Assembly (NCBI GenBank): GCA_033977065.1
Contig: JAXCHI010000002.1
Location: forward strand, 64,001-128,000
Direction: 5' to 3'
Length of the DNA stretch: 64,000 nucleotides
From: Candidatus Algichlamydia australiensis
GTDB lineage: Bacteria > Chlamydiota > Chlamydiia > Chlamydiales > JAJFMI01
Made by a program: the position numbers and the translations under genes. Shown piece after piece: positions 3,122 to 57,499 of this stretch. The notes beneath the pieces are model-generated. The model ran no database searches, was not told the origin of the DNA, and was given only the letters and a program-made list of their open reading frames with translations. The first letter of the stretch is position 1; each line of letters opens with the position of its first letter.

Positions 3122-4380
3122 TTTTTTTCGATCCCATCACTCGCGGACCACTTATTGGTTCGATGTTGATGACGCTATCTAGTGCGTTGATTGGAGTCTT
3201 TTTGCTCATTCGCAAACGCTCGCTTGTGGGCGAAGCTCTTTCGCACGCAGCCTATCCCGGTGTTGTGATTGCTGCCTTTTTCTTTTCAACAAATGACCTA
3301 GGAAAAACGTTTTTGATTTTAGGTGGTGCGCTTCTTTTTACGCTTCTTGCTATGAGCTTTATGGATATGTTAAAGCGCTTTCGCTTTCATGAAGATGCAG
3401 TGTTAACTCTCACCCTCTCCACGTTTTTGGGTGTCGGAATTCTTATTGCTTCTCGCCTGCAATTTATCAACCCTCTTGCCTATTCACAGATTGGGCAATT
3501 TCTTTATGGTCAAGTCGCAACGATGCGCGACTTCCATATTTTGCTCTACGGAGCTCTCACAGCTCTTGTCGCTCTCTTTGTAACTCTTTTTTACCACCCT
3601 TTGCGGCTGCTTCACTTTAACCCTTCTTATGCTCAAGTTTTGGGTGTTAAGCAGAAATTTTTAGAGAGAGTGCTGAAATTGCTAACGGCTCTCTCTATTG
3701 TAATTGGAATACGGACTGTTGGCGTCGTGCTGATGTCAGGGATGCTCATTGCTCCTGCCATTGCGGCTAGAAGTCTTTCGCATCGACTCTCAAAGATGCT
3801 TTTCATTGCCGCTGGAGTTGGTCTTACTAGTGGATTTTTAGGGAATTACCTCTCCACAAAAGTGGTTGCAGTCTATCTCCCCATCGGCCCTATGATTCTG
3901 CTTGTGGCCGCGGCAATTGCTCTGCTTGCGCTTTTCTTTTCACCTGAGAGAGGTTTATTCGTGCGTGCAATTCGTATTTTTCTTTTTCATAAGCGCCGAA
4001 CAGAAGAAAATATTTTAAAGTTTATTTGGAAAAGTGAAGGGGAGGTAACGCTTTCAAAATTGCGTGAGTTTCTGCCCTTACCGCGGATTCTATTGATTTT
4101 GGAACTGCGCGCGCTGATCTACCAAGGTTTTTTAGAAAAGAGAGACCAATATCGCTTTACGGCTGATGGAAAAAAGAGAGCTGCCCGCATTGTGCGATTG
4201 CACAGACTTTGGGAGCTCTACCTCTTCCATCAGCATCGTGTAAGCCCTGAAAAAGTGCATACAAGTGCCAATGAGATGGAGCATATCATTACACCTGAGG
4301 TAGAAAAACGACTGGATGATCTTCTTGGATCACCTGAAAAGGATCCGCACAATAAACCGATTCCAAAGGGGGAGGGCTAG
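3118..4380 (+). CDS. ytgC: Metal ABC permease fused to a DtxR-family iron-dependent repressor (YtgC-YtgR)
   Basis: Permease N-terminus (GEALSHAAYPG) plus C-terminal RIVRLHRLWELYL...ANEMEHII...DPHNKPIP DtxR signature, the known chlamydial fusion. Confidence 0.9.
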   Translation: MIFFDPITRGPLIGSMLMTLSSALIGVFLLIRKRSLVGEALSHAAYPGVVIAAFFFSTNDLGKTFLILGGALLFTLLAMSFMDMLKRFRFHEDAVLTLTLSTFLGVGILIASRLQFINPLAYSQIGQFLYGQVATMRDFHILLYGALTALVALFVTLFYHPLRLLHFNPSYAQVLGVKQKFLERVLKLLTALSIVIGIRTVGVVLMSGMLIAPAIAARSLSHRLSKMLFIAAGVGLTSGFLGNYLSTKVVAVYLPIGPMILLVAAAIALLALFFSPERGLFVRAIRIFLFHKRRTEENILKFIWKSEGEVTLSKLREFLPLPRILLILELRALIYQGFLEKRDQYRFTADGKKRAARIVRLHRLWELYLFHQHRVSPEKVHTSANEMEHIITPEVEKRLDDLLGSPEKDPHNKPIPKGEG

Positions 4381-16348: not shown

Positions 16349-16963
16349 ATGAGCATGATTAAAAAAACAGTTTTTAGCTTGATGCTTTTGTCTAGTATGA
16401 GGGTTTTTCCAACGGATGTAGAAAAAGTCTCTAAGATCAGTGACTCTTTAACGCTACTTTTGGGAAAAGAGGAAATTAACGAGGCAATTGAGAAGTTTGC
16501 AGCGGAGTTTAATCAAGATCAAACCCCACTCACAGTGATCTGTATCTTAAAGGGTGGTTTTGTATTTACAGCGGATGTGGTGCGGGCATTTACAATGCCA
16601 ACAAACGTACAATTTATTCGCTGCTCAAGCTATGGCACACGCGGAACAACCCCTGGCGCTTTAACGATTAACGGGCTTGAGAAACTGTCACTTGAGGGAG
16701 CAAATGTTCTTCTTATTGATGAAATTTTGGATTCAGGGCAGACTTTGCATGATGTCTATCACAAAATTTTAGAAATGAACCCAGCAAAATTGCAAACACT
16801 TGTTTTGCTTACAAAGAAGGTAGAGAATCAAAAATTTTCTGCTGACTATTCACTCTTTGATGTGGAAGACAACTTTGTTGTGGGCTATGGCATTGATTAC
16901 AAAGAGTGGTTCCGCAACCTGCCTGACATCTACATCAGTCGTGATCCAAAGCTGCTTGATTAG
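16349..16963 (+). CDS. hpt: Hypoxanthine phosphoribosyltransferase with N-terminal signal-like extension
   Basis: ICILKGGFVFTAD, SSYG, PRPP loop VLLIDEILDSGQTL and FVVGYGIDYKEWFRNLPDI; SD GAGGAG before 16349. Confidence 0.9.
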   Translation: MSMIKKTVFSLMLLSSMRVFPTDVEKVSKISDSLTLLLGKEEINEAIEKFAAEFNQDQTPLTVICILKGGFVFTADVVRAFTMPTNVQFIRCSSYGTRGTTPGALTINGLEKLSLEGANVLLIDEILDSGQTLHDVYHKILEMNPAKLQTLVLLTKKVENQKFSADYSLFDVEDNFVVGYGIDYKEWFRNLPDIYISRDPKLLD

Positions 16964-17123
16964 ATAGCGTCGTCAAAAGGCTATAATCAGATTATTTTTC
17001 ATGTTTGCAGCTTATTTTTGTGCGGAAATTGAAGCTGAATTTGTAAATTCCGCTTCATTTGAGCACAAAAATGGAGCCCAAACATGAAAAATAAGATGGT
17101 TGTATGCTTTTGACGACGCTATC
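16963..17123 (+). mobile_element. Palindromic miniature element, family A, copy 1 (161 bp, TA-flanked)
   Basis: Ends GATAGCGTCGTCAAAAG...CTTTTGACGACGCTATC with TA on both sides; near-identical copies at 31703 and 47272. Confidence 0.9.
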
Positions 17124-20100
17124 TAGTCCAATTTTTTGACTTTGTGACCCGAAAGTTTTGGCTCCATAATAAGCGGGTCGACGGTGAGAAGTGGTAGGAC
17201 GTCGACGATCGAAGGCGACCAGGAGAGGCCTTTGCGGTAGACCGCTTTTGCTGCAATGTAGGCAGCGATCATTGCTTTTTTGTGCACATCAGGGATCTCT
17301 TTGAGAATGCGGTCAGGGAAATCTTTACGCAGGAAAGGTGGGCAGGAGTGGAAGAGGCATTGGATGAGGGGATCCTCTGGGTTTTCAGGTAGATGAACGC
17401 TCTCTAAGTAGTCTAAAATTTGGTAGGTGTAGGCGTTGATGCGTTCAGAGACTTCTTCTGAGAGATCTGTAAAGTATTTACCTGTCTCAGCATTTGCGCG
17501 GATGAGAAGCTGCGCTTCGCTGCGCGCTTTGTCTGCAATGAGAGTGAGGATTTCCGGCATAAAGCTCTCTTTCAGTTTTAGAAATTCTTCATCGGAAAGG
17601 GTCAGGCCGAGCAGGACTTCAAATGAGGAGCAGATCACGCCTCCTTTGTTTGCAGAGCTATCTTTGACAATCATCACACCTTTGTCTTCAAGTTTGCGGC
17701 GCGCTTCTTGTGTGATATAGAGGTTAGCGCCTTCAACGATCGCTCGTGAGGTGGGATTGCCCGATTCATCGAGAAAGTCGGTCCAATTTTGATTATTTAG
17801 TGTGCGGGGGCGGCCACCAGCAGGAATGAAGATATCCGCTTTGACTTGGTGCACATTGTGCCGCAAAAGGTGATTCATATCGTTACCAGAGAGCCAGTCT
17901 TCTTCCAGTTTTTTCCCTTTCATGCGATAGCAGAGCGTCTGCTGGGTATAGGCAGTCTGTTCGCGTTTTGTGAAGGCGTCAAGAAGAAATCCGCCGTCGT
18001 GAAGGAGCTTAGCAGGGTAGTGGCGAATCGATTTTCCTTCGTGAAAGAGCTTACTCATCTCATCTAAGTTGAGTCCTTCTGGGTCAAAGATGGTGCCGGA
18101 GACATCGATGAGAGCGACAAGCTTTGCGGTTTTCGGAAAATCTCTATAGAGATTCAAAATCTGATTTCCTGCAACGTCTCCATCGGGCCCGCCAGAAATT
18201 TTTACAGTGAAAGAGTCTTTTGTTGGATCGATATCGAGATGTTTGAGGGTCTCAATCATGTAGACGTTTACCCCGAGCGAGGTGACTCCAAACTCTTTGT
18301 GGTTGATTCCCACATCGGGTTTTGAGGAGATGAAGGCTTTTCCTGGCTTGTATTCAGCTGATACAGCATAGTCAGCGATCCACTCAATCATCTCATTGTG
18401 CATATTTTCATCAGGACCAAGATAGATGTATTCGGGACGCTTGTAGTAGTCGACAATATGCTTCGCTTTGAGAAGACCGTTCTCTTCGCAGTTGACTAAG
18501 GTTACAAAGCTGTGCACGTAGGAGCGCTGCGACTGGTAAAGATATTGAATCTTTTGTTCCTCTTCATACGTGGCAACTTTTTTTTCGATCTCTTCGCTTG
18601 GGACGCCTCCAAATCGAAGCTCTTTTTCGTAAATTTTTCCTTCTGCCTGTAAAACATCATAGGGCTCTAAGAAAATGACCCCTTTAGAGCCCCCTTCAGG
18701 AATATCTTTGTTTTTTTTCTGCTGTGTATAGGCGAGGTTGTAACACTCAGAAAAGACAGTATTTCTTTCTGCTTCCATCTGTTCCATTTTGCGTGGAAAG
18801 ACGGTGCGCAGCCCTCCGCGAGAGAGGTCTTTGAATCGAATATGGAAGCCGATAAAATGCATGCCTTTAAAGAAAAAAATGGCAAAAGGAAGTTCAGGAA
18901 ATCGTTCTTGGCGGTCGTAGGGGAGCGCATCAAGATAGTGAGGGTCAAGACGGAAAGAGAGGCTGCTCTTATTATTTCGGTAAAAGTTGTTTTTTAACGT
19001 GTACTCTATGAAGGTATGGCCAAGAGTTAAAATATTCTTTCGGCGAGTGTCATTGATCTCATTTCCTGTATCAAGATCTTCAACAAGTTGCAAAAACTCT
19101 TTGGATTTTTTCTTATACTCCTCCGGACTGTTTTTATCCGGATGAAACTTGAGTTTAAAGAGTTCGGCGAGCATTGCAGTTAACTCAGGGTGACGACAGA
19201 GTCCCTCTTCTATATTTTCCCGGTCGTAGAGATTGGGATCGGCATAGGTGAGTGCTTGGTGAATAAAATCGAGCATTGCGCGAATTAAATTGGCATAGTT
19301 TCCCGATGCAAGCTTGGTATCAACTAGGACATTTTCAATCGTATCTTGTGTGTCGAAATACTTGAGCGTAACAAGTTCACGTAAAAAGACATTGAGATCA
19401 GTCGCTTCCCAGGCGGCTTTGCCATCAATACCATCAAAACCAATTGACATGATTAGAATATTTTTTTTGCTCCACGGGTCGATGTAGGTCGCATTAACGC
19501 GTTTCATCACAAGATTGTGGCGATAGACCATCTTCGCAAGACGGTACAAAAATCTATGTTTGGGCGCGTTGCGCCACGCAAGAACAATCTGAAGAGAGGG
19601 AGCGCCGGTCTCCTTCCAATCTTCGTTTTTCTTTATCTCATACTGGCAGTGATCGCGCGATTTAGCGCGCAGAAACATCTCGAGGGCGGTGATGAGACGA
19701 TCTTCGTTCATCGAGCGTACAAAGCGCGCATTCATATTTTCTAGCAAATGCTCAAAGAGGTCGCGCTGCATCTCTGGATTTTTTTTCTGAATCTTGCCAA
19801 AGAGCTCATCACAGCTTTCTTTTGATAAAATCTCATGGACTTGTTCACCACTCTCTTGATACTCAGTGAAGTAGATCACGCCAACGCGTAACTTTTGTGT
19901 GATTCCCTCAAATGGTGGAGGCACATCAGAAATAAAAGCTTGATAATTCTTTATGCCATACATGTTGTAGTGGCGCAGAATCTTGATATCTGCATCTGGG
20001 GCATCAAGGCACATGACAATCGCGCAATGCTGTAGGCGAAACTGAGAAAAGTGGTCTTGCAGGGGGAAGCCCATCATGTTGTGGGCGACCATCATGGCGT

Positions 20101-26763: not shown

Positions 26764-28766
26764 GCGCCACATTAACCCAACCTACTCTTGATATTGTTGC
26801 TGCTTACCGCCGTTCCCTGCTGTGCCGTCTGGTTGATGATAAAATGTCAAAGATGGTGCGCCAGAATAAGGGTGGAACGTTCCATCTCTGCATCAATGGT
26901 CATGAGTTGATTGGAGTTTTTGGCGGAATGACTCTGGTTCCTGGGAAAGATTGGGGACTGCCTTACTATCGCGATCGCGGCTTTGCTCTCGGACTTGGTG
27001 TTGACACAACAGAGCTCTTTGCCGCTTTTTTGGCGCGCGATGTCAAAAACCACTCTGGTGGCAAACAGATGCCAGAGCACTATTCAGACGTAGATCTGCG
27101 TATTCCCTGCCAGTCAAGTGTGGTTGGCTCACAGTTTTTGCAAGCAACAGGTGTAGCGCTAAGTGCTAAGCTTTCTGGCAAAGATGAGATTGTCTATGTC
27201 TCTGCTGGTGATGGCGCCACTTCTCAGGGTGACTTCCACGAAGCACTCAATTTTGCAGCTCTTCATAAACTTGGTGTGCTTTTTGTTATTCAAGATAATG
27301 ATTGGGCGATCTCGGTTCCTCGCAGTGAACAGATGTGCAATCCCTCCATTGCTGAGCGCGCAAAGAATTACACGGGGCTTGCCACTTTTGAAATTGATGG
27401 TACAGATCCGCAAGAACTTTTAGATGCCTACTCTCAAGCAGCAACAAGAGCACGTGCAGGAGAGGGACCAGCTCTTATTGTAGCAAAAGTGCCGCGCATT
27501 GGTGCGCATAGCATTAGCGACGATCCCAAAAAATACAAATCGATCGAACACGTCGAAGAAGATGAGAAGCGTGATCCACTACCGCGCTTTGAAAAGTGGC
27601 TTATTGAAAATGGTCACTTGACCCAGGAGCAAATTACTGCCCTTCATGCTGAGGTCAAAGAGGAAGTTGAAACCGCTGCCAAAGAAGCGGAAGAGTTTCC
27701 AAAACCTGATAGCGAAAATCACGAAGTCTTTGCTCCACACGGGCTTATTGAGAAGAGAAGCTGCCCCATTTCAAAAACAGATATTGTAATTGTCGATGCG
27801 ATTAACCACGCTCTTCATGAAGAGCTAGAATCAGATAGAAGAGTTGTCGCATTTGGACAAGATGTAGCCCATGGAAAGGGAGGCGTCTTTGGTGTAACGG
27901 CGAAACTAACCGAAACTTTTGGTACTAAACGCTGTTTTAATACACCACTTGCTGAATCCACTATCTCAGGAATCGCCATGGGTCTCTCTATGGCAGGTTA
28001 CCGCCCTGTTGCAGAAATGCAATTTTCTGATTACATGTGGACAGGTATTAACCAAATTTTTAACGAGATCTCCTCTCTCTACTACCGCTCTAACGGACTT
28101 TGGAATTGTCCGCTTGTCATCCGTATGCCGTGTGGCGGTTATATTCAAGGGGGACCTTACCACTCGCAGTCAGTTGAAGCCTTTCTTGCTCACTGCCCAG
28201 GGCTCAAAATTGCGATTCCAAGTAATGCGGCTGATGCGAAACGTTTGATGAAAGCAGCGATCCGCGATCCAAATCCCGTGATCTTCCTTGAGCATAAAGC
28301 TCTCTATCGCCAACGTCTCTATTCAGCAAAGCCAGAACCAGCAAAAGAGGATCTTCTTCCCCTTGGCAAAGCCCACATTGTGCATGAAGGCGAAGATCTA
28401 ACACTCATTACTTACGGCATGCTTGTGCCAATGGCTTTTGAGATCGCTAACCAGCTAGCTAAAGAGGGTATTTCGCTTGAAGTGATTGACCTGCGCACCA
28501 TCGTGCCACTCGATCGCGAAACGATCTTAACCTCGGTTAAGAAAACAGGAAAAGTGCTCATTGCGCATGAAGCTGTCAAACATGGCGGTTTTGGAGCAGA
28601 AATTGCAGCGCAAATCTCTGAAGAGCTCTTTCCTTATCTCGATGCACCCATCAAACGTATTGGCGCACGCAACTGTCCTGTGCCCTACAACAAAGAGATG
28701 GAAGCTTCCGTTCTTCCCCAAAAATCTGATATAGAGAAAGCAGTTAAAGAGTTGGCGAGTTACTAA
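26760..28766 (+). CDS. 2-oxoacid (2-oxoisovalerate/pyruvate) dehydrogenase E1, fused alpha/beta
   Basis: TPP motif GDGATSQGDFHEALNFA...DNDWAIS; beta-half FNTPLAES, GGPYHSQS and EVIDLRTIVPLD. Confidence 0.93.
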   Translation: MSATLTQPTLDIVAAYRRSLLCRLVDDKMSKMVRQNKGGTFHLCINGHELIGVFGGMTLVPGKDWGLPYYRDRGFALGLGVDTTELFAAFLARDVKNHSGGKQMPEHYSDVDLRIPCQSSVVGSQFLQATGVALSAKLSGKDEIVYVSAGDGATSQGDFHEALNFAALHKLGVLFVIQDNDWAISVPRSEQMCNPSIAERAKNYTGLATFEIDGTDPQELLDAYSQAATRARAGEGPALIVAKVPRIGAHSISDDPKKYKSIEHVEEDEKRDPLPRFEKWLIENGHLTQEQITALHAEVKEEVETAAKEAEEFPKPDSENHEVFAPHGLIEKRSCPISKTDIVIVDAINHALHEELESDRRVVAFGQDVAHGKGGVFGVTAKLTETFGTKRCFNTPLAESTISGIAMGLSMAGYRPVAEMQFSDYMWTGINQIFNEISSLYYRSNGLWNCPLVIRMPCGGYIQGGPYHSQSVEAFLAHCPGLKIAIPSNAADAKRLMKAAIRDPNPVIFLEHKALYRQRLYSAKPEPAKEDLLPLGKAHIVHEGEDLTLITYGMLVPMAFEIANQLAKEGISLEVIDLRTIVPLDRETILTSVKKTGKVLIAHEAVKHGGFGAEIAAQISEELFPYLDAPIKRIGARNCPVPYNKEMEASVLPQKSDIEKAVKELASY

Positions 28767-29328: not shown

Positions 29329-29440
29329 AATTTAACCTCCGTTTTGTTTTTTGTTTTAATTTACGTTTGAAAATGTACCTGAAAGTTTTTAATACGTCAA
29401 ATTTATGAAATAGAAGTCTTTCTCTGTTAATTAGGACATT

Positions 29441-29545
29441 TTGGTGCACGTAACTGTCCTGTGCCCTATACCAAAGAGATGAAAGCTTCTGTTTTTCCCA
29501 AAAAACCTGATATATAGAGCAGGTAAGGTACTTGCTTGTTATTAA
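29441..29545 (+). pseudogene. Degenerate duplicate of the 3' end of the E1 alpha/beta gene
   Basis: TTGGTGCACGTAACTGTCCTGTGCCCTATACCAAAGAGATG... aligns to 28660-28766. Confidence 0.85.
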
Positions 29546-29556
29546 GGAGATTCTTT

Positions 29557-30456
29557 ATGCTCGCTTTTGCCATGATGCATAAGTATTTAGATCCCAAGAA
29601 CGACATTGCGTTTAAGAAGATCTTTGGTGAAGAAAAGAATAAAGAGATTCCCATCGATTTTTTAAACTCTGCACTCAGCCTTGAAGGGAAGGATCGCATC
29701 ATCGATCTTGAATTTCTAAATCCTGTTCAGCCACCAGAAATCGCAGCAAAGAAAGAGAGCATAGTTGATGTATTGGTTCGTGATGATAATGGCTTTCGCT
29801 ATATTATTGAAATGCAAGTCGCAAAGATTCCCGGCTTTGAAAAGCGAGCGCAGTACTATGCTGCAAAGACGTATTGCACCCACTTCAATTCAGGAGGCGA
29901 ATACAAAGAACTTAAGAAAGTTGTGTTTCTTGCTATCACAGACTATGTGCTTTTTCCTGAAAAAGATGACTACAAGTCGATGCATCTCACAATTGATACA
30001 AAAACAGGAGAAAATGATCTACAAGATTTCTCTTTTACGTTTGTAGAGTTGCCTAAATTTACAAAGAAAGAGCATGAGTTAAAAACCGTTGAAGAGAAGT
30101 GGTACTATTTTTTAAAGACCGCGCCGGAATTTAATGATGTTTCAGAGGTTTTAGTCGCGCATTCAGAAATTGCACAGGCATACAAAATTTTGGATCGCTT
30201 CAACTGGACTGATCAAGAGCTTATGATTTACGACCGCGTCATCATGGCAAATATTGATGCCAAGGCAAAATTACGTGGAGCACGTGAAGAAGGACTAGCA
30301 GAAGGTATAGAAAAAGGCGAAAAGAAAAAAGCAATGGAAATTGCAAAAAGTCTTCTTAAGGAAGGTCTCGCAATTTCTATGGTGATCAAATCTACAGGAT
30401 TGCAAAAGGAAGAAGTAGAAAAATTAGCCTCTGCATTTGCGACGGCGGGCGATTGA
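29557..30456 (+). CDS. Rpn family recombination-promoting nuclease / PD-(D/E)XK putative transposase
   Basis: LDPKNDIAFKKIFG, SIVDVLV...IIEMQV, RAQYYAAK, FTFVELPKF and C-terminal EEG..EG.EKG...IAKSLL. Start uncertain (29557 or 29572). Confidence 0.92.
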   Translation: MLAFAMMHKYLDPKNDIAFKKIFGEEKNKEIPIDFLNSALSLEGKDRIIDLEFLNPVQPPEIAAKKESIVDVLVRDDNGFRYIIEMQVAKIPGFEKRAQYYAAKTYCTHFNSGGEYKELKKVVFLAITDYVLFPEKDDYKSMHLTIDTKTGENDLQDFSFTFVELPKFTKKEHELKTVEEKWYYFLKTAPEFNDVSEVLVAHSEIAQAYKILDRFNWTDQELMIYDRVIMANIDAKAKLRGAREEGLAEGIEKGEKKKAMEIAKSLLKEGLAISMVIKSTGLQKEEVEKLASAFATAGD

Positions 30457-31602: not shown

Positions 31603-31652
31603 AACTCAAGTTGCTACCCCCTTCCCCCTCTGGAGAGTGCCTTTTCGCGATC
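31603..31652 (+). repeat. Truncated left arm of a family-C palindromic element
   Basis: AACTCAAGTTGCTACCCCTTCCCCCTCTGGAGAG...TTTTCGCGATC matches the element at 43788. Confidence 0.8.
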
Positions 31653-31679
31653 TACTTAAATATTAGGGTGATGAACTTT

Positions 31680-32200
31680 GTACTCTGTAGCAGAAAATTT
31701 TAGATAGTGTCGTCAAAAGCATACAACCATCTTATTTTTCATGTTTGGGCTCCATTTTTGTGCTCAAATGAAGCGGAATTTACAAATTCAGCTTCAATTT
31801 CCGCACAAAAATAAGCTGCAAACATGAAAAATAATCTGATTATAGCCTTTTGACGACACTATCTAGTATTATTTTTACATAAAAGCCTCGAGATTAAAGA
31901 AATTGTCTGATTATGCAAGGTTTTCTACAAAACAAAAAAACAGCCGCGCGAGCGACGTGAAAGGAGCCTCTCCTGAAACGAAGTGGAGGGAGGGGAATGA
32001 ACGCGCGGTGCGCTCGATGGCTTCAGATTGGCTTTGAAAAATTGCGGTGCAGGAGGAAGAAGTAGTGCTTTGCACGGTTTTCCGACGAAACGCAATTTGG
32101 CATGCCAAGATGAAGCTCAAAGGGCAGCGGGGATTTGCCCGACTGTCTCTATTGGCTGTTTTTTTTAAATTAAACACTAAGATTTTCTGTTACAGAGCAC
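31680..32200 (+). mobile_element. Family B long element (about 358 bp net) interrupted by a nested family-A element
   Basis: Ends GTACTCTGTAGCAGAAAATTT...ATTTTCTGTTACAGAGCAC; internal about 260 bp nearly identical to 46430-46690. Confidence 0.88.
31703..31863 (-). mobile_element. Family A element, copy 2 (inverted, nested in family B)
   Basis: Reverse complement of 16963-17123; TA duplicated at 31701-02 and 31864-65. Confidence 0.92.
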
Positions 32201-32206
32201 TAACTT

Positions 32207-33523
32207 TTAGAAGGGGAGCATGAGGCCATCGAAGGCCATGCGGACCTGTACGTCTAAGTGGCACTCATCTAAGATATCGCGCAGAAGTTGAATTTTTACT
32301 TGTAGGTCGCGATCCGAGTGCTGCGGATCGTGATGGGTGATGATCCAATTTTTGCAACCTGTAGCAGCGATAAGAGCTACAGCGTTGGAGATGGAAGAGT
32401 GTCCCCAACCGACGCGGCGGCGGTACTCTTCTGGAAAGTATTGCGCTTCATGAACGATGATATCACAATCGCGCAAGAAGGTGATAAGACGCTTGTGCGG
32501 CTCAAGCATTGGATGATTTTTACCAATATCTTTGGGGTGACCATGAAAACCCATGAGGACTTCGTTATCAGTGACATAGCCAATGGTGTGATGCGGGGAT
32601 TTGATCTTAAAGCAGAGGGTGTCACCAGGATGATAGGCGTAGTGCGTTTCTAGGGTAAGTTGCCCAATTTGAATCTGTTGGTTATCACGAATTTCTTTAA
32701 ATGTAAGGTCGGCCATCACATCATCAAGACGAACAGGAAAGAAGGCGTGAGCGAGCATTTCTGTAAAAATCGCTTTTGGACTGCGATCAAATCCTACAGG
32801 TGCATGCACATTGATTTTTGTCGTATTGCGGTAGATCGGCTGAAAGAAGGGAAAGCCAGTGATGTGATCCCAGTGCGTGTGCCCAATAAAAAGATTGAGC
32901 TCTCCGTTAAGTTGAATCTCTTCACCAAGAGGGCGGATACCGGTGCCTGCATCAATGATGAAGAGATCATCATTATAGCGCACCTCGAGACAACAAGTAT
33001 TGCCGCCGTAGCGGATGTATTTGGGGCCAGAGACGGGATTGGAGCCGCGTGTGCCCCAAAATTTTAAGTAGGTGGTACTGACTGTAGGAGTCGGGTGGTA
33101 GATCGCCTCCTCTTTGGTAATCTCAGGACCGACGTAGCTGCTGCTCTTTAAAGTTCCCTGGAAAAAAGCTTCTACTCTTCCAAAAAAATCTTCCGCAGAG
33201 AAAGGCTTTTGCAGATAGTCATCAGCGCCTCGCTCAAGAGCTGCGCGATGGTTTTGAATCATTGTCTGTGCCGAAGTAACAAAAACACCAAGCATTTTAT
33301 TGCGACCACCAAGCCGATCTAGTATTTCAATGGCGTGCATCTCTGGAAGCATGAGTTCAACAAGCAGAAGGTCGGGCTTAAATCTCTCTAAACGATCCAG
33401 GCATTCCGGACCACTTCGTGCCGTCTCAATTTCGTAATTTGCCGCCTTAGGATCGCGCAAGATCAGCTCAAGTGTCTTGGTGCAGGGGTCCGCGATGAGG
33501 ATATGGCGCTTTTTATTTTCCAC
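32207..33523 (-). CDS. Receiver domain fused to an MBL-fold hydrolase (possible cyclic-nucleotide phosphodiesterase)
   Basis: N-terminal REC fold (PDLLLVELMLPEM...GADDYLQKPFS), then FWGTRGS, YGGNTCC, IIDAGTG, HTHWDH, WGHSS and THHDP. Confidence 0.85.
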   Translation of the reverse strand: MENKKRHILIADPCTKTLELILRDPKAANYEIETARSGPECLDRLERFKPDLLLVELMLPEMHAIEILDRLGGRNKMLGVFVTSAQTMIQNHRAALERGADDYLQKPFSAEDFFGRVEAFFQGTLKSSSYVGPEITKEEAIYHPTPTVSTTYLKFWGTRGSNPVSGPKYIRYGGNTCCLEVRYNDDLFIIDAGTGIRPLGEEIQLNGELNLFIGHTHWDHITGFPFFQPIYRNTTKINVHAPVGFDRSPKAIFTEMLAHAFFPVRLDDVMADLTFKEIRDNQQIQIGQLTLETHYAYHPGDTLCFKIKSPHHTIGYVTDNEVLMGFHGHPKDIGKNHPMLEPHKRLITFLRDCDIIVHEAQYFPEEYRRRVGWGHSSISNAVALIAATGCKNWIITHHDPQHSDRDLQVKIQLLRDILDECHLDVQVRMAFDGLMLPF

Positions 33524-43738: not shown

Positions 43739-43787
43739 AGAGCCATTCTACCACAGCTTTGATTAAAATAATAATCTTTATTTTTTA

Positions 43788-43948
43788 AACTCAAGTTACT
43801 ACCCCCTTCCCCCTCTGGAGAGACCCTTTTTGCGATCTGTTTAGTTTAAAATTTCAGAAATGTTTAACAAACATTCCTTCAATTTGAAATTAAACATCTC
43901 ATCAAAAATCCCTCTCTCCATAGGAGAAACTGGGTAGCAACTTGAGTT
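43788..43948. repeat. Palindromic miniature element, family C (about 161 bp)
   Basis: Ends AACTCAAGTTACTACCC...GGGTAGCAACTTGAGTT; imperfect hairpin throughout; partial copy at 31603. Confidence 0.85.
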
Positions 43949-43955
43949 TTTTAAA

Positions 43956-45494
43956 TCATTTGTTTACAGATCCATTGAGCTCGACACCCGCAAAGCGCAA
44001 AAGCGTATCGTAATTCGCAGCCTCTTTTTGAGGTGTTTCTACTTTTGGAGCAGTAGGGATTTCGGCTACAGGTTTAGGAGTTTCAATTTTTACGGTAGGG
44101 GAGGCTGCAGCTTTTGGGGCAGGCGAAGCTTCAACTTTTTGTGTAGAAGCAGTTTCAACTATAGGCTTTGGAGGGTCAGCCTTAGGAGCAGCGGTGGGTT
44201 CAGCTATAGGTTTAGGAGTTTCAGTTTTTGTAGTAGGGGGAGCTTCAACTATAGGCTTTGGAGGTTCAATCTTAGGAGCAGCAGGGGTTTCGGTTACAGG
44301 TTTAAGGGGTTCTATTTTTGGGCTAGGGGGGGCTGCAACTTTTGGGGTAGAAATAGTTTCAACTATAGGCTTTGGAGTTGCGACACCTGATGCGGGTTGA
44401 GAGAGCTCTTTTTCCAATTTTTCTAGTCTTTCTACCAACAACTCTGGGTGCAGGCGTTTTTGCATGCGCAAAAGCTTTAAAAGGATCACTTCTAGGTGAA
44501 TAAAAGAGATTGTTTGAGAAGAGAGAGCATTGACCAATAGATCGAGACCTTGGATCAAAAAATCCTTGCTTAGAGCGACTTGTTTGCCTGTCAATGAGGC
44601 GCGTAAATGCAAGCGCAGATGTTCGGAGAGACCAACAAGAAAGGCTTTTGGTTCTTTTCCTTCCTCTTTTAGCTTTTCAACTAAGGTAAAGGCAAAGTTT
44701 AAGTTGTGCTCTTTTGCAGCGGCGTCAAACGAAATGAAGTCTTCATCTGTTGGAAGACCAAGTACTTCCTCGATATTTTGTTTTGTTAGTTGCGTGTCTG
44801 TAAAGAGGAGCATCTTTTCAAGTAGTGATTCTGCATCGCGTACACTACCTTGAGCAAGCTTTGCTAAAGACTCCAATGCATCTTTTTCTGCTGGCACGCC
44901 ATATGCATCACAAATCCCACTTAATTTTTTTCCGATCTCCTCTCCACTTAGGCTTTTAAGAGGGAAGCGCTGGCAGCGACTTAGAATTGTAGTGGGAACT
45001 TTTTGGGGCTCAGTTGTGGCAAAGAAGAATTTTACTGTTGCAGGAGGCTCCTCTAATGTTTTCAAAAGCGCATTGAAAGCCTCTTTTGTTAGCATATGAA
45101 CTTCGTCAATAATATAAATCTTGAATTTACCTTGAGAGGGGGCATACGCAGCACTCTCCGTAATTTGGCGCACATCATCAATCCCGCGATTTGAAGCACC
45201 ATCAATCTCAATTACATCAAGCGAACTGCCCGACATGATCTCTTTACACGAGGCGCACTCATTGCACGGCTCTCCATCAACGCCTCTATTTTGACAATTC
45301 AAGGCTTTGGCAAAAATTCGAGCTAATGTCGTCTTTCCTGTACCGCGAATTCCTGAAAAGAGGTAGGCATACCCGACACGGCCTTTTATTAAAGAGTTTT
45401 TAAGAACTTCAACAACGCTGTTCTGACCCAGTACTTCTGAAAAAGTTTTGGGTCGATATTTTCTTGTGATGGGGATGTAGTGTTCCATATCCAC
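43956..45494 (-). CDS. dnaX: DNA polymerase III subunit gamma/tau
   Basis: RKYRPKTF, GIRGTGKTT, CNECASC, IIDEVHMLT and SRCQRF motifs; Pro/Thr-rich repeat linker. Confidence 0.96.
   Translation of the reverse strand: MDMEHYIPITRKYRPKTFSEVLGQNSVVEVLKNSLIKGRVGYAYLFSGIRGTGKTTLARIFAKALNCQNRGVDGEPCNECASCKEIMSGSSLDVIEIDGASNRGIDDVRQITESAAYAPSQGKFKIYIIDEVHMLTKEAFNALLKTLEEPPATVKFFFATTEPQKVPTTILSRCQRFPLKSLSGEEIGKKLSGICDAYGVPAEKDALESLAKLAQGSVRDAESLLEKMLLFTDTQLTKQNIEEVLGLPTDEDFISFDAAAKEHNLNFAFTLVEKLKEEGKEPKAFLVGLSEHLRLHLRASLTGKQVALSKDFLIQGLDLLVNALSSQTISFIHLEVILLKLLRMQKRLHPELLVERLEKLEKELSQPASGVATPKPIVETISTPKVAAPPSPKIEPLKPVTETPAAPKIEPPKPIVEAPPTTKTETPKPIAEPTAAPKADPPKPIVETASTQKVEASPAPKAAASPTVKIETPKPVAEIPTAPKVETPQKEAANYDTLLRFAGVELNGSVNK
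44028..44385 (-). repeat. Degenerate coding tandem repeat (about 15 aa units) in the DnaX linker
   Basis: PKPIVE.../PKIEPPKPIVE/PKADPPKPIVE/KIETPKPVAE; DNA TTCAACTATAGGCTTTGGAG recurs at about 44154, 44244 and 44358. Confidence 0.8.
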
Positions 45495-45564
45495 TCAATA
45501 TACCCCACTTTCGAATAAAAAAATCAGTATGAAAATAAGTCGGGGGTCAGCCCCCCGCGCCCCC

Positions 45565-45660
45565 TTCGTCTCCATCTCGCTTCATAGAATCGCGTCCTCG
45601 GCTTAGGGGTGTACGCAGTACTACCCCGTGCGCCTGCGGTACGATTCTATTTTGCGATAA
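45565..45660. repeat. Palindromic element, core D type
   Basis: TTCGTCTCCATCTCGCTT (as at 20341), then hairpin TCGC..ATAGAATCG...GGGGT-GTAC-GCA-GTAC-TACCCC...CGATTCTAT..GCGA. Confidence 0.65.
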
Positions 45661-45663
45661 TAT

Positions 45664-45830
45664 GCCAGCCGAGATATTGCTCTCTTCCCCTTTTGGAAAA
45701 ATTCTTTTTGCGATCTGTGCAATTCCGATTTTCAGAAATGTTTTTTTAAACATTCCTTTCAAATTGCAATCACACATCTCATCAAAAATTATTTCCTCCA
45801 AAAGAGGAAGAGAGCAATATCTTGGCTGGC
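45664..45830. repeat. Palindromic element (167 bp) with a family-C-like core and different termini (type E)
   Basis: Ends GCCAGCCGAGATATTGCTCTCTTCC...GGAAGAGAGCAATATCTTGGCTGGC; core TTTTTGCGATCTGT...TTCAGAAATGTTT...AAACATTCC...ACATCTCATCAAAAAT shared with 43788. Confidence 0.82.
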
Positions 45831-46120
45831 CCCGTGGTTCCACTTCGCGCCCAAGCAGCTTTTTTCGAAAAAACAAAAAAATTAGTCGCACATGTTGACG
45901 CGAGAAGGGGCCTGCGAAGTGAAAGCGCAATTATTCACTGTTTTCTCCAATGGTAAACGCGAAACAACAACCTATAATTGTTATGTGATATACCTGATTG
46001 CGCCTACCGGTAATTCCAACAAACGTTTTTCTTTCTGGACCTAGAGGATAAACGTTTATTTTTTCGCTCGTTTTCCCTTGGGATGTCCATGTTGTTTTAA
46101 CAGTAACAGAAATCGACCTA

Positions 46121-46283
46121 GTACTCTGTAACAGAAATTTTTAGCATTATTTTTACGTCAAAGCCTCGGGATTGAACTATCGAAAATCACCTCGTATTTG
46201 ATTAATACTAGGTGACTTGCGATAGCCCAATCGCGAGAGCTTTCACGTTAAAAAGAATAGCAAAAATTTTTGTTACAGAGTAC
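46121..46283 (+). mobile_element. Family B short element (163 bp), copy 1
   Basis: TIR GTACTCTGTAACAG.../...TGTTACAGAGTAC, TA-flanked, full-length imperfect hairpin. Confidence 0.92.
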
Positions 46284-46285
46284 TA

Positions 46286-46690
46286 GTACTCTGTAACAGA
46301 AAATTTTAGTATTATTTTTAACGTGAAAGCCTTCGCATAAAAATGGATCCCAAACGTGAAAAGTAAAGCGATTGTATGTGATTGAAAAAGCTGTCTAGAC
46401 CTTGCAAAGTTTTCTGCAAAACAAAAAAAAACAGCCGCGCAAGCGACGTGAAAGGGGCCCCTCCCGAAACAAAGTGGAGGGTGGGGAATGAACGCGCGAT
46501 GCGCTCGATGGCTTCAGATTGGCTTTGAAAAATTGCGGTGCAGGAGGAAGAAGTAGTGCTTTGCACGGTTTTCCGACGAAACGCAATTTGGCATGCCAAG
46601 GTGAAGCTCAAAGGGCAGCGGGGATTTGCCCGACTGTCTCTATTGGCTGTTTTTTTAAATTAAACACTAAGATTTTCTGTTACAGAGTAC
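46286..46690 (+). mobile_element. Family B long element (405 bp) with GC-rich structured cargo
   Basis: Same TIRs, TA-flanked; second copy at 31680-32200. Confidence 0.92.
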
Positions 46691-46692
46691 TA

Positions 46693-46855
46693 GTACTCTG
46701 TAACAGAAAATTTTAGCATTATTTTTACGTCAAAGCCTCGGGATTGAACTATCGAAAATCACCTCGTATTTGGTTAATACTAGGTGACTTGCGATAGCCC
46801 AATCGCGAGAGCTTTCACGCTAAAAAGAATAGCAAAATTTTCTGTTACAGAGTAC
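46693..46855 (+). mobile_element. Family B short element (163 bp), copy 2
   Basis: About 5 differences from 46121-46283; TA-flanked. Confidence 0.92.
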
Positions 46856-47271
46856 TAGTAGGATGCTGATTTACTACATAAACTCTAGATCCATAATTTC
46901 CACCAACATGTATGTGCTCTAAGCGCGCATAGCCTCCGCAATTATTGACTTGTCCATCGTCTGCAACCTTGATACTTTCGTCGTGAAGGTCTGTCCATGA
47001 ATCATCTTCTTCGTAGAATGGTAGCGGGTTCTCGGTTTCATTTATTCCGTAAGCAGGATTGAAAAGTCCAGCAGCACATGAGACCAACAAAACAAAAAAA
47101 GGCATTTTTTTTACGTTCATTTTAAACTCCTATCTATTGGGTGGCTTCTAAAAAACTCAAGTTCTAAAAAAAGTTCCTTTAAGCCCTGGAACAGGTTAAT
47201 GAATTCTTTTTGCCTTGGCAAGAAATTTTTAATCTATTGCTTTCCCTAGAATGTGCCCTTAAACTTATCTA

Positions 47272-47432
47272 GATAGTGTCGTCAAAAGGCTATAATCAGA
47301 TTATTTTTCATGTTTGCAGCTTATTTTTGTGCGGAAATTGAAGCTGAATTTGTAAATTCCGCTTCATTTGAGCACAAAAATGGAGCCCAAACATGAAAAA
47401 TAAGATGGTTGTATGCTTTTGACGACGCTATC
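47272..47432 (+). mobile_element. Family A element, copy 3 (161 bp)
   Basis: Matches 16963-17123 except at one TIR base; TA at 47270-71 and 47433-34. Confidence 0.92.
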
Positions 47433-47565
47433 TAGACATCGTCTAAAAATTCACCCAAAGAAAATTAGCCCCGTCCCAGTATAGCAGCTACTTTTATTTT
47501 TTTTTAAATGAATTCTTAAAAGGAGGTTTGCGGGGAAATAGTGGGGGGAGTAGAATGTAAACTGT

Positions 47566-53513: not shown

Positions 53514-54385
53514 AAAGAGAACTTCTCCTCTTGAACACAATTCCAATTTGTTCCGTGGCGGCAAGTAGATTCGAAGACCTCTATTTTTGCACTCTTTTCA
53601 TCCAGCTCAAGGAGGTTCCAAGAACCGTGTGTAGCGTGAGAAGTGCTTCCACTATCTAAGACGATAGGGAGCTGATCGCCGCGTAGATCGGCAATAACAC
53701 GCCTATGAGTATGCCCGTGGAGATAAAAAAGAATATTGGGTGTTTCGCGTAGCAATCCTTCTAAGCGCTTTCCACCTATCAAGCGGCGCTTATAAGAGTC
53801 ATTACAGAAGAAGGGAAAGTGATTCAACATAAGAATCTTTGCATCATTAGGAATTTTTTTGAGAATTCCGCGCAAATTTGCCTCAATTGATTCAGAAAAA
53901 TCTCCTGTTGCATCGATAAAAGGGGTGTACATAGTGGTATCAAGCGTTACTACCCAGTAATAACTTGTAAGGGGAAAAGCGCTAACGCGATCCATTTTGA
54001 TTGCATTTTCTGGAACGGGTTGAGGAATTTCTTCATAAAAAGCGCGGCGCTTTACGGCACCTTTTGTATAGTGGTCGTGATTACCTGGAATCATCACAAC
54101 ACGGAAATTTTTCTTTCTAAACTCATCAATGAGTTTACGGGCAAGATGGTACTCGCTCTTTTGCGATGTAGTGGTAAAGTCGCCGGTAATAAAAATGTCT
54201 GTAATTTTCTTTTTTTCAAAGAAGTCAGGGAGAGAAAAGGGCTTGTCGTTGAGATAGATACGTCCTCGTTTCAAGAGAAGGTTCGCATTTCCCAAAAGGC
54301 GTTTTGAAAAAATCTGCAGGGGATTTAAGCAAATTTTTGAAAAGTGCAAATCAGAGATATGTGCAATGCGAATCGGGCCCTTCAT
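53510..54385 (-). CDS. Calcineurin-like metallophosphoesterase
   Basis: HISDLH, TGD, PGNHD and LHGHTH motifs. Confidence 0.9.
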   Translation of the reverse strand: MKGPIRIAHISDLHFSKICLNPLQIFSKRLLGNANLLLKRGRIYLNDKPFSLPDFFEKKKITDIFITGDFTTTSQKSEYHLARKLIDEFRKKNFRVVMIPGNHDHYTKGAVKRRAFYEEIPQPVPENAIKMDRVSAFPLTSYYWVVTLDTTMYTPFIDATGDFSESIEANLRGILKKIPNDAKILMLNHFPFFCNDSYKRRLIGGKRLEGLLRETPNILFYLHGHTHRRVIADLRGDQLPIVLDSGSTSHATHGSWNLLELDEKSAKIEVFESTCRHGTNWNCVQEEKFSL

Positions 54386-54611
54386 AGAAGAGCCATTCTA
54401 TCACATTACTTCTTTTTGAGAGCTATGTAATAATTGAACTGTAACAAACGAATCATAGAGCAATTTTGTTGTTAATTGTGATATGGGATTCGATCAAGTT
54501 TCTAGTTCTTTTGATTCAAAGTAATTATAGACTTTCTGTGAGTTAGCTTTCGCATAAAAGCAAACTATAAGCCTGCAAAATAATTTCTTCATAGCGATTT
54601 AACGATACTAT

Positions 54612-54914
54612 CTAGCATTTTGTTTGAGTATTGGGCGACCGGGGAGGGAGTTGGCTCATCTGGAGAACATATTCGTCTACCCTTTTTAAAAGATTCTCTC
54701 TGAATTCTACTGCCTCATCTAAGAGTTTTATATTATTATTAGCCGTTTCTTTGGATTCAGAAAATTCTTCAATGGCTTCTAGGGCTTTTTTGAACCTATT
54801 AAATATTTCTTCTGATCTGTTTAGTACTTCTTCTTTAGTAATGTTTCTCACAAAAATTTTTTCTTGCATCTGAGAAAAGAACTCACTTAGTGTCACGGAC
54901 GTAGTTGTATGCAT
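54612..54914 (-). CDS. Hypothetical small helical protein
   Basis: 100-aa AT-rich ORF starting 1 bp after the stop of the DUF4135-like gene. Confidence 0.6.
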   Translation of the reverse strand: MHTTTSVTLSEFFSQMQEKIFVRNITKEEVLNRSEEIFNRFKKALEAIEEFSESKETANNNIKLLDEAVEFRENLLKRVDEYVLQMSQLPPRSPNTQTKC

Positions 54915-54915
54915 T

Positions 54916-56076
54916 TTATCCCCTTTTCATTTTTATCGCTCCGCTGTGAGAGCATCTTATCCAATTTTCTTCTAAATGTAAATGAAAAACTGGTATTTCA
55001 ATTACTTGTGGGGGATTTGTGAGTTCTTTTGATCTTTGTAATTCAAAATTTATTTTTTCTGTAGCATTCTCTTCCTCAAATAAATTATTAATTTTATCTC
55101 GAATCATTTCGATCGAAGGATTATCTTTTTCATCTAATTCTAAAATTTTATTTTTAATTAAAAAATTTGAAAACAATAGAATGTGATAATCATAAACATT
55201 ATCTGGTGTATTTAATCGAAAGTTGCCAACTTTAGTAATTGGATTAAACATTTTCCACGCTCTCCATTCATCTTCATCAAGTAAAATTAGATTTTGATAT
55301 TTATCCGTTCCACAAAAAATTAGTCTTGTTGGTATAGATTTTAACTCTTTAATGAACTTATTGGCCAGAGAATCAACAATATCTTTTTTTTGTTTTTCAA
55401 TTTTTTTTTCTACTCCTTCCATTAAAGAATTCAAATTTTTAGAGGATTTTGTGCAAAAAATTTCTGCGTCGATAAAATAAAGATACCCTTTCTCATCAAT
55501 TAGAAAATTATCTTGATGCGTGTCTTCAAATCCAAATCTTGCCAAGGTATAAATCAAATTAATATTTTCTTTTTTTGCGTTTTCTTCACTCAGAAGCTCA
55601 ACTAATTGCACTTCTAAATTCTCCCCTCTTTGGCAAAGATGCTCTCCCACAATAAAACCGTCGTAACCATATTGTTCACAGTTTAGTATTGGTCTGGGTT
55701 CTTTTTTGTTTAAATCTTTCAGAAAATTTTCTAAATGTATTTCAGGTGCTAAACTTCGTGGTTTGTAGACGACTTTGGAGAAATTGCCATTACTATCATA
55801 GAAAGTAATATAAAGTGCTACCTTGCCGCCGTAGTGGCGTTCTTTGCCAGCAATTGAGATTTCAAGGTTTTCTATAGATCCGAGATCTTTTTTTATAAAA
55901 AACGTATCTACAATTTTTTCGTAATCATTTTTGAGGTTTTCTTGAACTTCTTGGAAAAATGCTTCGGATAGAGTTTCAGGATTTAGGGCATTCTCAATTG
56001 CTGTGAAAAAATCAGTTTTTCTGTTTTCGAGAATAAGGTATTCATTAAGTCTATTTGGCCTGATTGGTGATGTCAT
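54916..56076 (-). CDS. Stand-alone DUF4135 (LanM dehydratase/kinase-like) domain protein
   Basis: ERHYGGK, KVVYKPRSL, YGYDGFI, DTHQDNFL and FIDAEIF parallel LanM N-domain motifs (DxHxxG, VYKPRS, YGW, DLHxEN, IDLE); no LanC-like cyclase. Confidence 0.72.
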   Translation of the reverse strand: MTSPIRPNRLNEYLILENRKTDFFTAIENALNPETLSEAFFQEVQENLKNDYEKIVDTFFIKKDLGSIENLEISIAGKERHYGGKVALYITFYDSNGNFSKVVYKPRSLAPEIHLENFLKDLNKKEPRPILNCEQYGYDGFIVGEHLCQRGENLEVQLVELLSEENAKKENINLIYTLARFGFEDTHQDNFLIDEKGYLYFIDAEIFCTKSSKNLNSLMEGVEKKIEKQKKDIVDSLANKFIKELKSIPTRLIFCGTDKYQNLILLDEDEWRAWKMFNPITKVGNFRLNTPDNVYDYHILLFSNFLIKNKILELDEKDNPSIEMIRDKINNLFEEENATEKINFELQRSKELTNPPQVIEIPVFHLHLEENWIRCSHSGAIKMKRG

Positions 56077-56230
56077 TAATTAAATATTTTATTTTATTTT
56101 TAAAATAAAATATTTAATCTGTCAACAAGTGTAAGACCTATAAGCTATTCTTTAAATAACTAAAGCTGTTCCCCTAAAAATATGTAAAAAAACGCAGTAA
56201 TGAGTACCGCCAATTTTATTATAACTCTTT

Positions 56231-56614
56231 TTAACGTTTTTTCATGACTTTGTTTACAAGACGTTTACCGTGATCGATGGTTTGTTTTCGCACGACCTCC
56301 ATCCAACGGGTTCCCTCAAAGTGGATGTGTTCTGGCTCTGTTTCGTATTCGACTTCATTGCTATTTTGTCTCTTTGAGCGCTTCTTTTTAAATAGCTTTG
56401 CCTTTTTACGGCGCATGCCTTTTTTCATGGAGTCAATCTCTTGGGAGAGATGTTTTTCAAGAGCTGCTTTTTTTGGATCGAGGCTAGGTTTTTGGTAGTG
56501 TTTCTCAATATTTTCCAAGTTATGTGGTTCAGAGTCAGGAGTGTAGGGGGGCTTCATGTTCTGACGAACAAGTTTATTACGTTTATGATTATATTTATGT
56601 GGAGAATTTTTCAT
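56231..56614 (-). CDS. Hypothetical basic protein
   Basis: 127-aa Lys/Arg-rich ORF with SD AGGTG. Confidence 0.6.
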   Translation of the reverse strand: MKNSPHKYNHKRNKLVRQNMKPPYTPDSEPHNLENIEKHYQKPSLDPKKAALEKHLSQEIDSMKKGMRRKKAKLFKKKRSKRQNSNEVEYETEPEHIHFEGTRWMEVVRKQTIDHGKRLVNKVMKKR

Positions 56615-56644
56615 AATAACACCTATTTCTATTCTATTATTTAA

Positions 56645-57499
56645 TTAATTAGTAAATAATTTCAAGAAGTTAGTTAAAACTTTCTGAACAGAAATAAGTT
56701 TTTTCCACTGCTCTTCTCGATAGCGCTTGGGGTAGAGTTTTGAGGGAAGTACTACATGATTTGTGTAAAAGCTTGGGCGCCAAAGAGAAATGTGCTGATG
56801 ACGATTGGAGAGAGTGAGAGTAGGAATTCTAAGTGCAGAGGCTAAATGTCCTAAACCTGAGTCATTTCCAATAAAACTCCCTGATTCATAGAGAAATGCC
56901 GCTGTTTCGGAAAGGTTCGCTAAGTGAGGAGTCTCATAGCCCCAATTCTCCCACTCCTCTTGCGACATCACAAACTGCGGATCAAATCCGCGCTTTTTGA
57001 GTTCCTCGGCAAGTTTTAGAAATTTTTCTTTAGGCCAGTTGCGAAAATTTTCACGGCTCGTGGGGTGAATCGCTACTCGCGTAGTATATTTTTTATGTAC
57101 GAGATTTGACGGAGGAATAAGGCCGCTTTTGCATGGCATGGAAAGGGTCTTGGATAGACTCGTGGCAATAGGAGCATTCGTTCCGAGGTAAAAATCCTGC
57201 GAGCGAATTGCGGGGTGTTTTTTCTCTTCGTGGTTGTGATAGAGAATATGGACATGTTCAAGACTTCGGAATTTTTCTGCGCGTGGGGCGTTTTCATTTT
57301 GGTAAAAAATGCATTCGTAGTCTGTTTGGATTGCATTTCCAGGTTTAAGAATAAATTCAGGTAACCAGGGAGAAAGGGAGGGGAGAATGTTGTGATAAAT
57401 CGTTGTCTGAAAACCCTGTTTTTTTAGATAGTTTGCAGCGATCAACATGATAATGCCATCGCCTAAACCTTTACAGGGAATGAGCGCAGCACGTTTCAT
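56645..57499 (-). CDS. Glycosyltransferase family 9 (heptosyltransferase-like)
   Basis: GLGDGII, IHPTS...NWP and FIGNDSGLGHLASAL motifs. Confidence 0.88.
   Translation of the reverse strand: MKRAALIPCKGLGDGIIMLIAANYLKKQGFQTTIYHNILPSLSPWLPEFILKPGNAIQTDYECIFYQNENAPRAEKFRSLEHVHILYHNHEEKKHPAIRSQDFYLGTNAPIATSLSKTLSMPCKSGLIPPSNLVHKKYTTRVAIHPTSRENFRNWPKEKFLKLAEELKKRGFDPQFVMSQEEWENWGYETPHLANLSETAAFLYESGSFIGNDSGLGHLASALRIPTLTLSNRHQHISLWRPSFYTNHVVLPSKLYPKRYREEQWKKLISVQKVLTNFLKLFTN

Follow-up and report, generated by a model that had tools for sequence, protein, structure and literature searches.

Mobile insertion cassettes are transposase-less elements that hold passenger DNA between their ends. Passages of PMC2229807 describe MITE transcripts as forming long stable stem-loops with an effect on neighbouring mRNAs, and the RNA hairpins of the Correia/NEMIS elements as influencing neighbouring transcripts. 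Confirmed sRNAs of Coxiella derive from MITE copies, according to the parts of PMC5896051 that deal with the QMITEs; folds of -85 to -128 kcal/mol are given there for these elements (about -128 kcal/mol for QMITE1), and QMITE2 occurs in full-size and small versions. For IS630, a 2-bp duplication and a CTAG target are listed in Table 1 of PMC2577343. Classical chlamydiae are almost without repeats and chlamydia-related genomes carry many, as the Waddlia genome paper states in passages that do not describe the repeat families (PMC2878342).

Here, we describe two long MITEs with a GC-rich, structured interior in a 64,000-nt stretch of the Candidatus Algichlamydia australiensis genome (the window). 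The window carries ytgA-ytgB-ytgC fused to a DtxR-like domain-ytgD-dxr-rseP, hrcA-grpE-dnaK, HPr kinase and enzyme I genes, and GroEL variants. We take the gene order of ytgA-B-C(R)-D-dxr-rseP and of hrcA-grpE-dnaK to be chlamydial. Within ytgA-D, a metal ABC permease is fused to a DtxR/MntR-like repressor domain (3118-4380; residues 345-417), and such a fusion followed by dxr and rseP is presumably the arrangement known from Chlamydia. HIP1 is mildly enriched in the window (5 occurrences against 0.75 expected); a cyanobacterial origin, which this might suggest, was rejected in view of the annotated ytg and hrcA gene clusters, and the host is taken to be chlamydia-like. The stretch at 54000-57000 is of low GC (30-36% versus 43%) and may be acquired DNA; an ORF at 54916-56076 (minus strand) has a partial LanM-like match (E 7e-15) that is well below the family cut-off.

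Two GC-rich segments within long B elements

A repeat search of the window revealed a direct repeat pair, 31929-32173 / 46420-46664 (245 nt, 95% identity). It contains a segment that we call the cargo. Copy A lies at 46424..46660 on the plus strand and is a GC-rich module predicted to form a three-way junction; copy B, with the same predicted fold, lies at 31932..32167, also on the plus strand. A global alignment of 46424-46657 with 31934-32166 gave 224 matches, 9 mismatches, and 1 gap column. Eight of the nine mismatches are true substitutions, and the ninth is an offset caused by the length of a T-run. Two near-identical copies about eight substitutions apart had been reported in a preliminary description of this DNA, and this count is confirmed, with differences in homopolymer length in addition (A-run of 9 versus 7 and T-run of 7 versus 8 in copies A and B). 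The GC content is 51.5% over 46424-46660 and 55.6% in the core (46433-46648), as compared with 33.3% in the left part of the long B element, 35.5% in its right flank, 35.3% in the short B element, and 42.8% in the window. The cargo had also been described as richer in GC than its flanks, which agrees with these values (core 55.6% against 33-35%); 0.49% of the 216-nt windows reach the GC content of the core.

Both copies lie inside B-type elements, the ends of which read GTACTCTGTAACAG. The 22-nt TIR, GTACTCTGTAACAGAAAATTTT, has eight matches in the window at up to 3 mismatches (0 expected by chance), and these pair into four elements. The long B element with cargo copy A (46286..46690, plus strand) is 405 nt long, has TIR matches at 46286-46307 (plus) and 46669-46690 (minus), and is flanked by TA on both sides (46284-85 and 46691-92). 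The long B element with cargo copy B (31680..32200, plus strand) has TIR matches at 31680-31701 (plus) and 32179-32200 (minus), and contains a nested MITE of a different family, D1, that splits its left arm; its left flank is TT and its right flank TA, which is one mismatch to the TA rule. Later insertions set aside, the length of about 405 nt comes down to 365 nt. None of the six ORFs of the long B element has a Pfam match, so that the element contains no transposase gene.

The element with copy A adjoins, via shared TA dinucleotides, a 163-nt short B MITE on one side (46121..46283) and, on the other, another short B MITE that shares 97% identity with it (46693..46855). TA is found at four of four junctions of this B / long B / B array, with a single TA between elements and TA also on the outside, and the reconstructed target of the array is CC-TA-GT. 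Since the element has G as its first and C as its last letter, C-TA-G would be recreated at both ends each time it inserts, which would lead to the observed stacking. From the TIRs, the TA flanks, and the small size, we infer that the long B element is a MITE of the IS630/Tc1-mariner type. In the window, no autonomous IS630-family element with matching ends was found. Searches in distant mode gave no match among plasmids for the cargo or the short B element, and none among phages for the whole cargo-bearing long B element.

At least three MITE families occur in the window, with nesting and stacking at TA sites. The D1 MITE nested in the left arm of the long B element with copy B (31701..31866, 166 nt, TIR GATAGYGTCGTC) entered at a TA and shares 99% identity, in reverse complement, with 16961-17126 and 47270-47435. 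TA is present on both sides of all three D1 copies, whose ends read GATAGYGTCGTCAAAAG, and their 99% identity suggests recent activity. An extra 43-nt piece in the left arm of the element with copy A is 77% like a D1 end. The third family is palindromic, with ends CAAGTTACTACCC/GGGTAGCAACTTG and C/T-rich arms (about 43786-43948 and 45664-45830, on both sides of dnaX), and a partial copy (31609-31680) adjoins the long B element with copy B. Five MITEs of three families lie in the 2-kb intergenic region (45495-47565) that separates dnaX from a divergently oriented 7TM-HD receptor gene. Two ORFs, 45547-45930 and 46845-47120 (minus strand), are probably spurious, as neither has a family match and the first overlaps a MITE. 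Within dnaX itself (DNA polymerase III gamma/tau), tandem 45/90-nt repeats (44034-44377) would encode a repetitive linker.

The preliminary description had viewed the cargo as a separate module that spreads between different B-type ends. This does not hold, because both cargos sit in the same long B framework: with D1 set aside, the two elements align as homologous from left TIR to right TIR. The left TIRs are identical at 21 of 22 positions and the left arms at 83% of aligned columns (55 matches, 11 mismatches, and 50 gap columns). The first 76 cargo columns contain seven substitutions, the remaining 157 columns one, and the right linker plus TIR one in 33. The left segments had been described as different, that of copy A (AACGTGAAAGC) resembling the inverted right arm of the short B element and that of copy B (AAAGCCTCG.GATT) its left arm. 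These resemblances are present, but the left arms also align with each other, and the main visible difference between them is the nested 166-nt D1 MITE in copy B. The near-identical block starts inside the cargo and runs through an unstructured linker into the right TIR; since it extends past the cargo in this way, the borders of the cargo are not those of a separate mobile unit. As judged from the alignment, the recently shared block is the right two thirds of the cargo plus the right end of B, not the cargo itself. A binomial estimate for seven of eight substitutions falling in 76 of 233 columns is about 0.002. Our explanation for this clustering is that the two long B elements recombined or underwent gene conversion, as the alignment suggests, while it could instead mark a variable functional domain.

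Copies of the cargo without B ends were not found in the window (BLAST at word size 7 returned the two copies only). A covariance model of the P3 hairpin of the predicted fold, run over the window with filters off, returned the two cargo copies at 130 bits. Its next matches outside the cargo scored at most 25.4 bits and are generic MITE hairpins; the minus strand of the cargo scored 27. No sub-hairpin of the cargo occurs alone in the window, and the 15-mer at the cargo 5' end has one further match there, with 2 mismatches and inside a coding region.

Predicted fold and substitution pattern of the cargo

Folded as RNA, the plus strand of copy A is predicted at -103.6 kcal/mol (z = -6.2; none of 200 shuffles was as good) and that of copy B at -102.8 kcal/mol (z -6.1). 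The predicted fold is a three-way junction, with 74 pairs in the consensus of the two copies (RNAalifold). It is closed by the cargo's own inverted repeat, A7CAGCC/GGCTGT7, as helix P1 (A6CAGCC/GGCUGU6), from which three plus-strand hairpins are predicted to branch: P2, irregular, with CCCCUCCC/GGGUGGGG (about 46437-46504); P3, 99 nt long, with the stems of the preliminary description (about 46510-46608); and P4, of 10 pairs (about 46613-46639). The branched stems and closing repeat of that description were largely recovered, as CCCTCC/GGAGGG, GCTTCA/TGAAGC, TTGGC/GCCAA, AAATTGCG/CGCAATTT, GGAA/TTCC, and GTGC-TTT-GCAC are all part of both the minimum-energy and the consensus fold. In the last stem listed, GGGCA/TGCCC gives way to GGGCAGCGGG/CCCG-A-CUGUCU in the predicted fold. 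The whole 405-nt element with copy A, taken as RNA, is predicted at -152.6 kcal/mol (z = -9.2), and the cargo fold is kept.

The apical loop of P2 (46467-46476) reads ACAAAGU, or ACGAAGU in copy B, and is complementary to CUUUG in the tip of P3 (46553-46563) and to UUUG in the loop of P4 (46623-46630). The A-to-G change retains this pairing via G-U. In the predicted structure, the complementarity could be a loop-loop contact or could be due to chance.

The minus strand of the cargo folds less well as RNA than the plus strand (-81.1 versus -103.6 kcal/mol, an advantage of 22 kcal/mol for the plus strand, whose fold contains 5-7 G-U pairs). With DNA parameters, the two strands are about equal (-53.9 versus -50.2 kcal/mol; z -4.65 and -5.9). 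Three of the eight substitutions fall in predicted pairs, and all three positions still pair via G-U (A-U to G-U once and C-G to U-G twice); one changes a U.U mismatch to U-A, and four are unpaired. We compared this pattern with a base-matched permutation, in which the same base changes were placed at random on each copy's own minimum-energy structure. On the plus strand, P was 0.042 from A to B (0 broken pairs) and 0.035 from B to A (1 broken pair), values that are partly circular in that the structure was predicted from the sequences compared; on the minus strand, P was 0.29-0.69. The pattern gives weak support to an RNA-level constraint on the plus strand, weak because two sequences are involved, double compensatory changes are lacking, and the structure comes from the same sequences. 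Together, the strand asymmetry of the predicted RNA fold and the placement of the substitutions favour a plus-strand RNA rather than ssDNA. Hence, of the structured RNA or ssDNA module proposed in the preliminary description, the unusual GC richness and the very stable branched predicted fold stand, with RNA favoured, and the separate spread does not.

Relatives, coding potential, and gene context

The cargo had not been recognised as a known RNA family, and a search of Rfam with the cargo alone was in line with this (0 matches at E<=10). With Rfam 15 at the gathering score, nothing was detected in the cargo. In a search with 701 nt, the cargo was touched by RsaD only (E 3.7), at its 3' edge and running into the second short B element; the remaining matches lay on the flanking MITE palindromes. 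No HEARO, 6S, group I/II intron, or ribozyme match was found in the cargo. An exact 18-mer scan of 185,579 species-representative genomes gave four loci in unrelated phyla, all of them chance matches of 18-20 nt. The literature searched on MITEs or IS630 in Chlamydiae or chlamydia-related genera yielded no description of these elements.

An open frame runs across the cargo on the minus strand (97 and 88 aa in the two copies), and its ends differ between the copies, as do those of the plus-strand frames. No Pfam family was matched by the six cargo ORFs (best E 0.04), and no word-sharing candidates were found for the 88-aa minus-strand frame or the 65-aa plus-strand frame in the search for protein relatives. 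Two matches returned by HMMER among 1.84 billion representative proteins (E 4e-6 and 4e-5) were rejected as spurious, since they are tandem-repeat proteins aligned in 5 and 10 stretches. As read from the two translations, the eight substitutions cause about four amino-acid changes and are silent in four cases. Judged from these frames, the cargo is unlikely to be protein-coding.

No sigma-70-like promoter was predicted ahead of the cargo in either copy, so that the cargo would most likely be transcribed by read-through only. A terminator-like hairpin is predicted on the minus strand (46434..46447 in copy A and 31943-31956 in copy B), with 5 pairs (4 of them G-C) and a loop of 4, followed by a run of 8 T in copy A and 7 in copy B. 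The predicted form of an intrinsic terminator, a G+C-rich hairpin directly followed by a U-tract, is thus present on that strand in both copies. On the plus strand, the U-tract is preceded by the long-range closing helix only, which encloses 200 nt and is not a normal terminator, and the terminator scan made no call there.

Copy B lies between convergent genes. A response-regulator/metallo-beta-lactamase-fold gene on the minus strand has its stop codon at 32207-32209, with the long B element of copy B 6 nt beyond it and the terminator-like hairpin about 270 nt past it. Copy A lies in the divergent 2-kb region full of MITEs, where termination would be without obvious use. Downstream of copy A is a short B MITE, and downstream of copy B the response-regulator gene, which is on the other strand and has its 3' end nearest. 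The preliminary description had suggested a search for copies next to a transposase, HUH, or RT gene; none is present among the 53 ORFs scanned in the window, of which the only transposase-like one encodes a PD-(D/E)XK family protein and lies 1.2 kb from the long B element with copy B. This gene (29536-30456) has upstream of it an 83-nt direct repeat (28655-28737 / 29436-29518, 86% identity). A retron msr-msd was rejected: a closing repeat is present, but there is no RT among the ORFs scanned.

Origin of the cargo and comparison with known systems

Our reading starts from the observed repeat, element anatomy, predicted fold, and absence of known relatives in the collections searched; the transposase family, an effect as terminator or stabiliser, and capture as the origin are what we infer from them. 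We propose that the cargo is a built-in internal region of the long B element, itself a longer sibling of the 163-nt B MITE. A transposase of the IS630/Tc1-mariner type, encoded elsewhere, would move the long B element in trans by cutting at the TIRs and inserting at TA, and the cargo would travel only within the element and would not be needed for movement. The GC content, the strand-biased fold, and the substitutions suggest that the cargo has its origin in an RNA-level structure or is maintained as one. When neighbouring genes are read into the cargo, the stable three-way junction with its A- and U-tracts may end or stabilise the transcript, and with copy B the response-regulator mRNA would end in about 270 nt of structured RNA.

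The chance that the cargo is such a passenger core of an IS630-type MITE, acting, if at all, in cis on transcripts, appears to us to be about even. The cargo is probably a mobile RNA hairpin or terminator module. Against this reading, the better-folding strand (plus) is opposite to the canonical terminator strand (minus), and at the location of copy A a terminator has no clear use. Also against it stand the absence from the window of a transposase with matching ends and the TT at the left flank of copy B. The reading also explains the GC content of the core (55.6%, versus 24-35% in the interiors of the other MITEs in the window) only by assuming capture or selection.

Much of the same evidence could fit a structured sRNA gene that belongs to a new family, was taken up by a B-type MITE, and yields a discrete plus-strand RNA of about 230 nt acting in trans. 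A GC content of 55.6% against 42.8% in the window is typical of structural RNAs, and the z of -6.2, the 22 kcal/mol advantage of the plus strand, the substitutions compatible with plus-strand pairing (P about 0.04), and the U-tract at the end of the closing helix all agree with it, as do the MITE-derived sRNAs documented in the QMITE passages of PMC5896051. We nevertheless hold it to be unlikely, if well short of negligible, because neither copy has a sigma-70-like promoter upstream, neither Rfam nor any other collection searched contains a relative, the borders of the conserved block differ from those of the cargo, and there are only two copies. It is improbable, in our estimate, that the cargo represents a new ncRNA family in the fuller sense, that is, a three-way junction some 230 nt long, variable in P2 and near-invariant in P3-P4, that was captured by a TA-targeting MITE and has spread as a mobile RNA gene. 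The interior could also be functionless, being the decayed remnant of a parent IS or of a captured gene, or a set of nested small palindromes, with the fold as a by-product. Nesting and tandem insertion of MITEs are indeed frequent here (D1 in long B; B / long B / B), and the minus strand of the cargo is open over 88-97 codons. However, the six cargo ORFs match no Pfam family and have no protein relatives beyond the two tandem-repeat matches, the ORF ends differ between the copies, and the split into about four amino-acid changes and four silent ones likewise speaks against this reading. Moreover, no sub-hairpin is found alone in the window, and strand-asymmetric G-U pairing is not expected of DNA palindromes; we rate a functionless interior as rather unlikely.

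A guide-type RNA (omega RNA, bridge RNA, or seekRNA), in which the more variable 5' domain P2 specifies the target, is suggested by the size of the cargo, its multi-stem architecture, its place inside a mobile element, and the crowding of 7 of the 8 substitutions into one domain (76 of 233 columns). This seems very improbable, as no TnpB, IscB, IS110, or RT gene is present among the 53 ORFs scanned, neither HEARO nor any other Rfam family matches, and matches between the cargo and its flanks reach 7-9 nt at most, which does not exceed the median of 9 expected by chance. No TA-duplicating TIR element is known to use guides. Equally remote, in our judgement, is an ssDNA structure that serves transposition or replication (HUH, rolling-circle), or else a gene for a small basic peptide. 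Folding with DNA parameters is significant for either strand (z -4.65 and -5.9), which would suit ssDNA, but the element has classic TIRs and TA flanks rather than HUH-type ends, and no HUH gene occurs among the 53 ORFs scanned in the window. For a peptide, there is a 35-aa frame with an SD-like AGGAGG 8 nt before a GTG at about 46556. Its C-terminus differs between the copies owing to the T-run length (frames of 41 versus 58 aa), the peptide's own frames have no Pfam match, and the overlapping 65-aa frame, in another reading frame, has no homologue.

Should the cargo stop or stabilise transcripts, as the preferred passenger-core reading allows, it would provide a mobile regulatory cassette, ready for use, in an obligate intracellular host with few genetic tools. 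Should it instead prove to be expressed as an RNA, a MITE would here have mobilised an RNA gene. On present evidence, the long B element is an ordinary long-form TA-targeting MITE with an unusually GC-rich branched core of no known RNA family.

Its likeness to RUP of Streptococcus pneumoniae, which is mobilised by IS630, includes TIRs, TA ends, the lack of a transposase gene, a position between genes, insertion beside or within other mobile elements, and transcripts with predicted long stable stem-loops, as far as RUP is covered in passages of PMC2229807. RUP differs in being a simple hairpin of 107 bp (same passages), as compared with about 405 nt and a GC-rich three-way-junction core in the long B element, and in that no IS with matching ends was identified for the long B element in the window. 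The Correia/NEMIS elements of Neisseria, in the account given by parts of PMC2229807, resemble the B elements in that short and long forms share their ends, have TA ends, and differ by an internal piece. Their forms measure 107 versus 155 bp, and the internal piece of 50 bp is not a branched GC-rich structure (PMC2229807, in part), whereas the extra piece of the B elements measures about 235 nt and takes the place of most of one arm.

QMITE1 of Coxiella burnetii, which like the host here is an obligate intracellular bacterium, is comparable to the long B element in its length of 300-400 bp and its very stable predicted RNA folds (passages of PMC5896051). No sequence similarity between the two is claimed. 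The QMITEs are present at about 50 per genome and their expression has been demonstrated, according to the same passages, whereas two copies of the cargo are known. The Tn3-derived TIMEs, mosaic non-autonomous transposons treated in PMC4133298, are likewise transposase-less, with ends that enclose passenger DNA. The passengers of such elements are usually genes, whereas that of the long B element is a non-coding structured segment carried between TA-duplicating ends.
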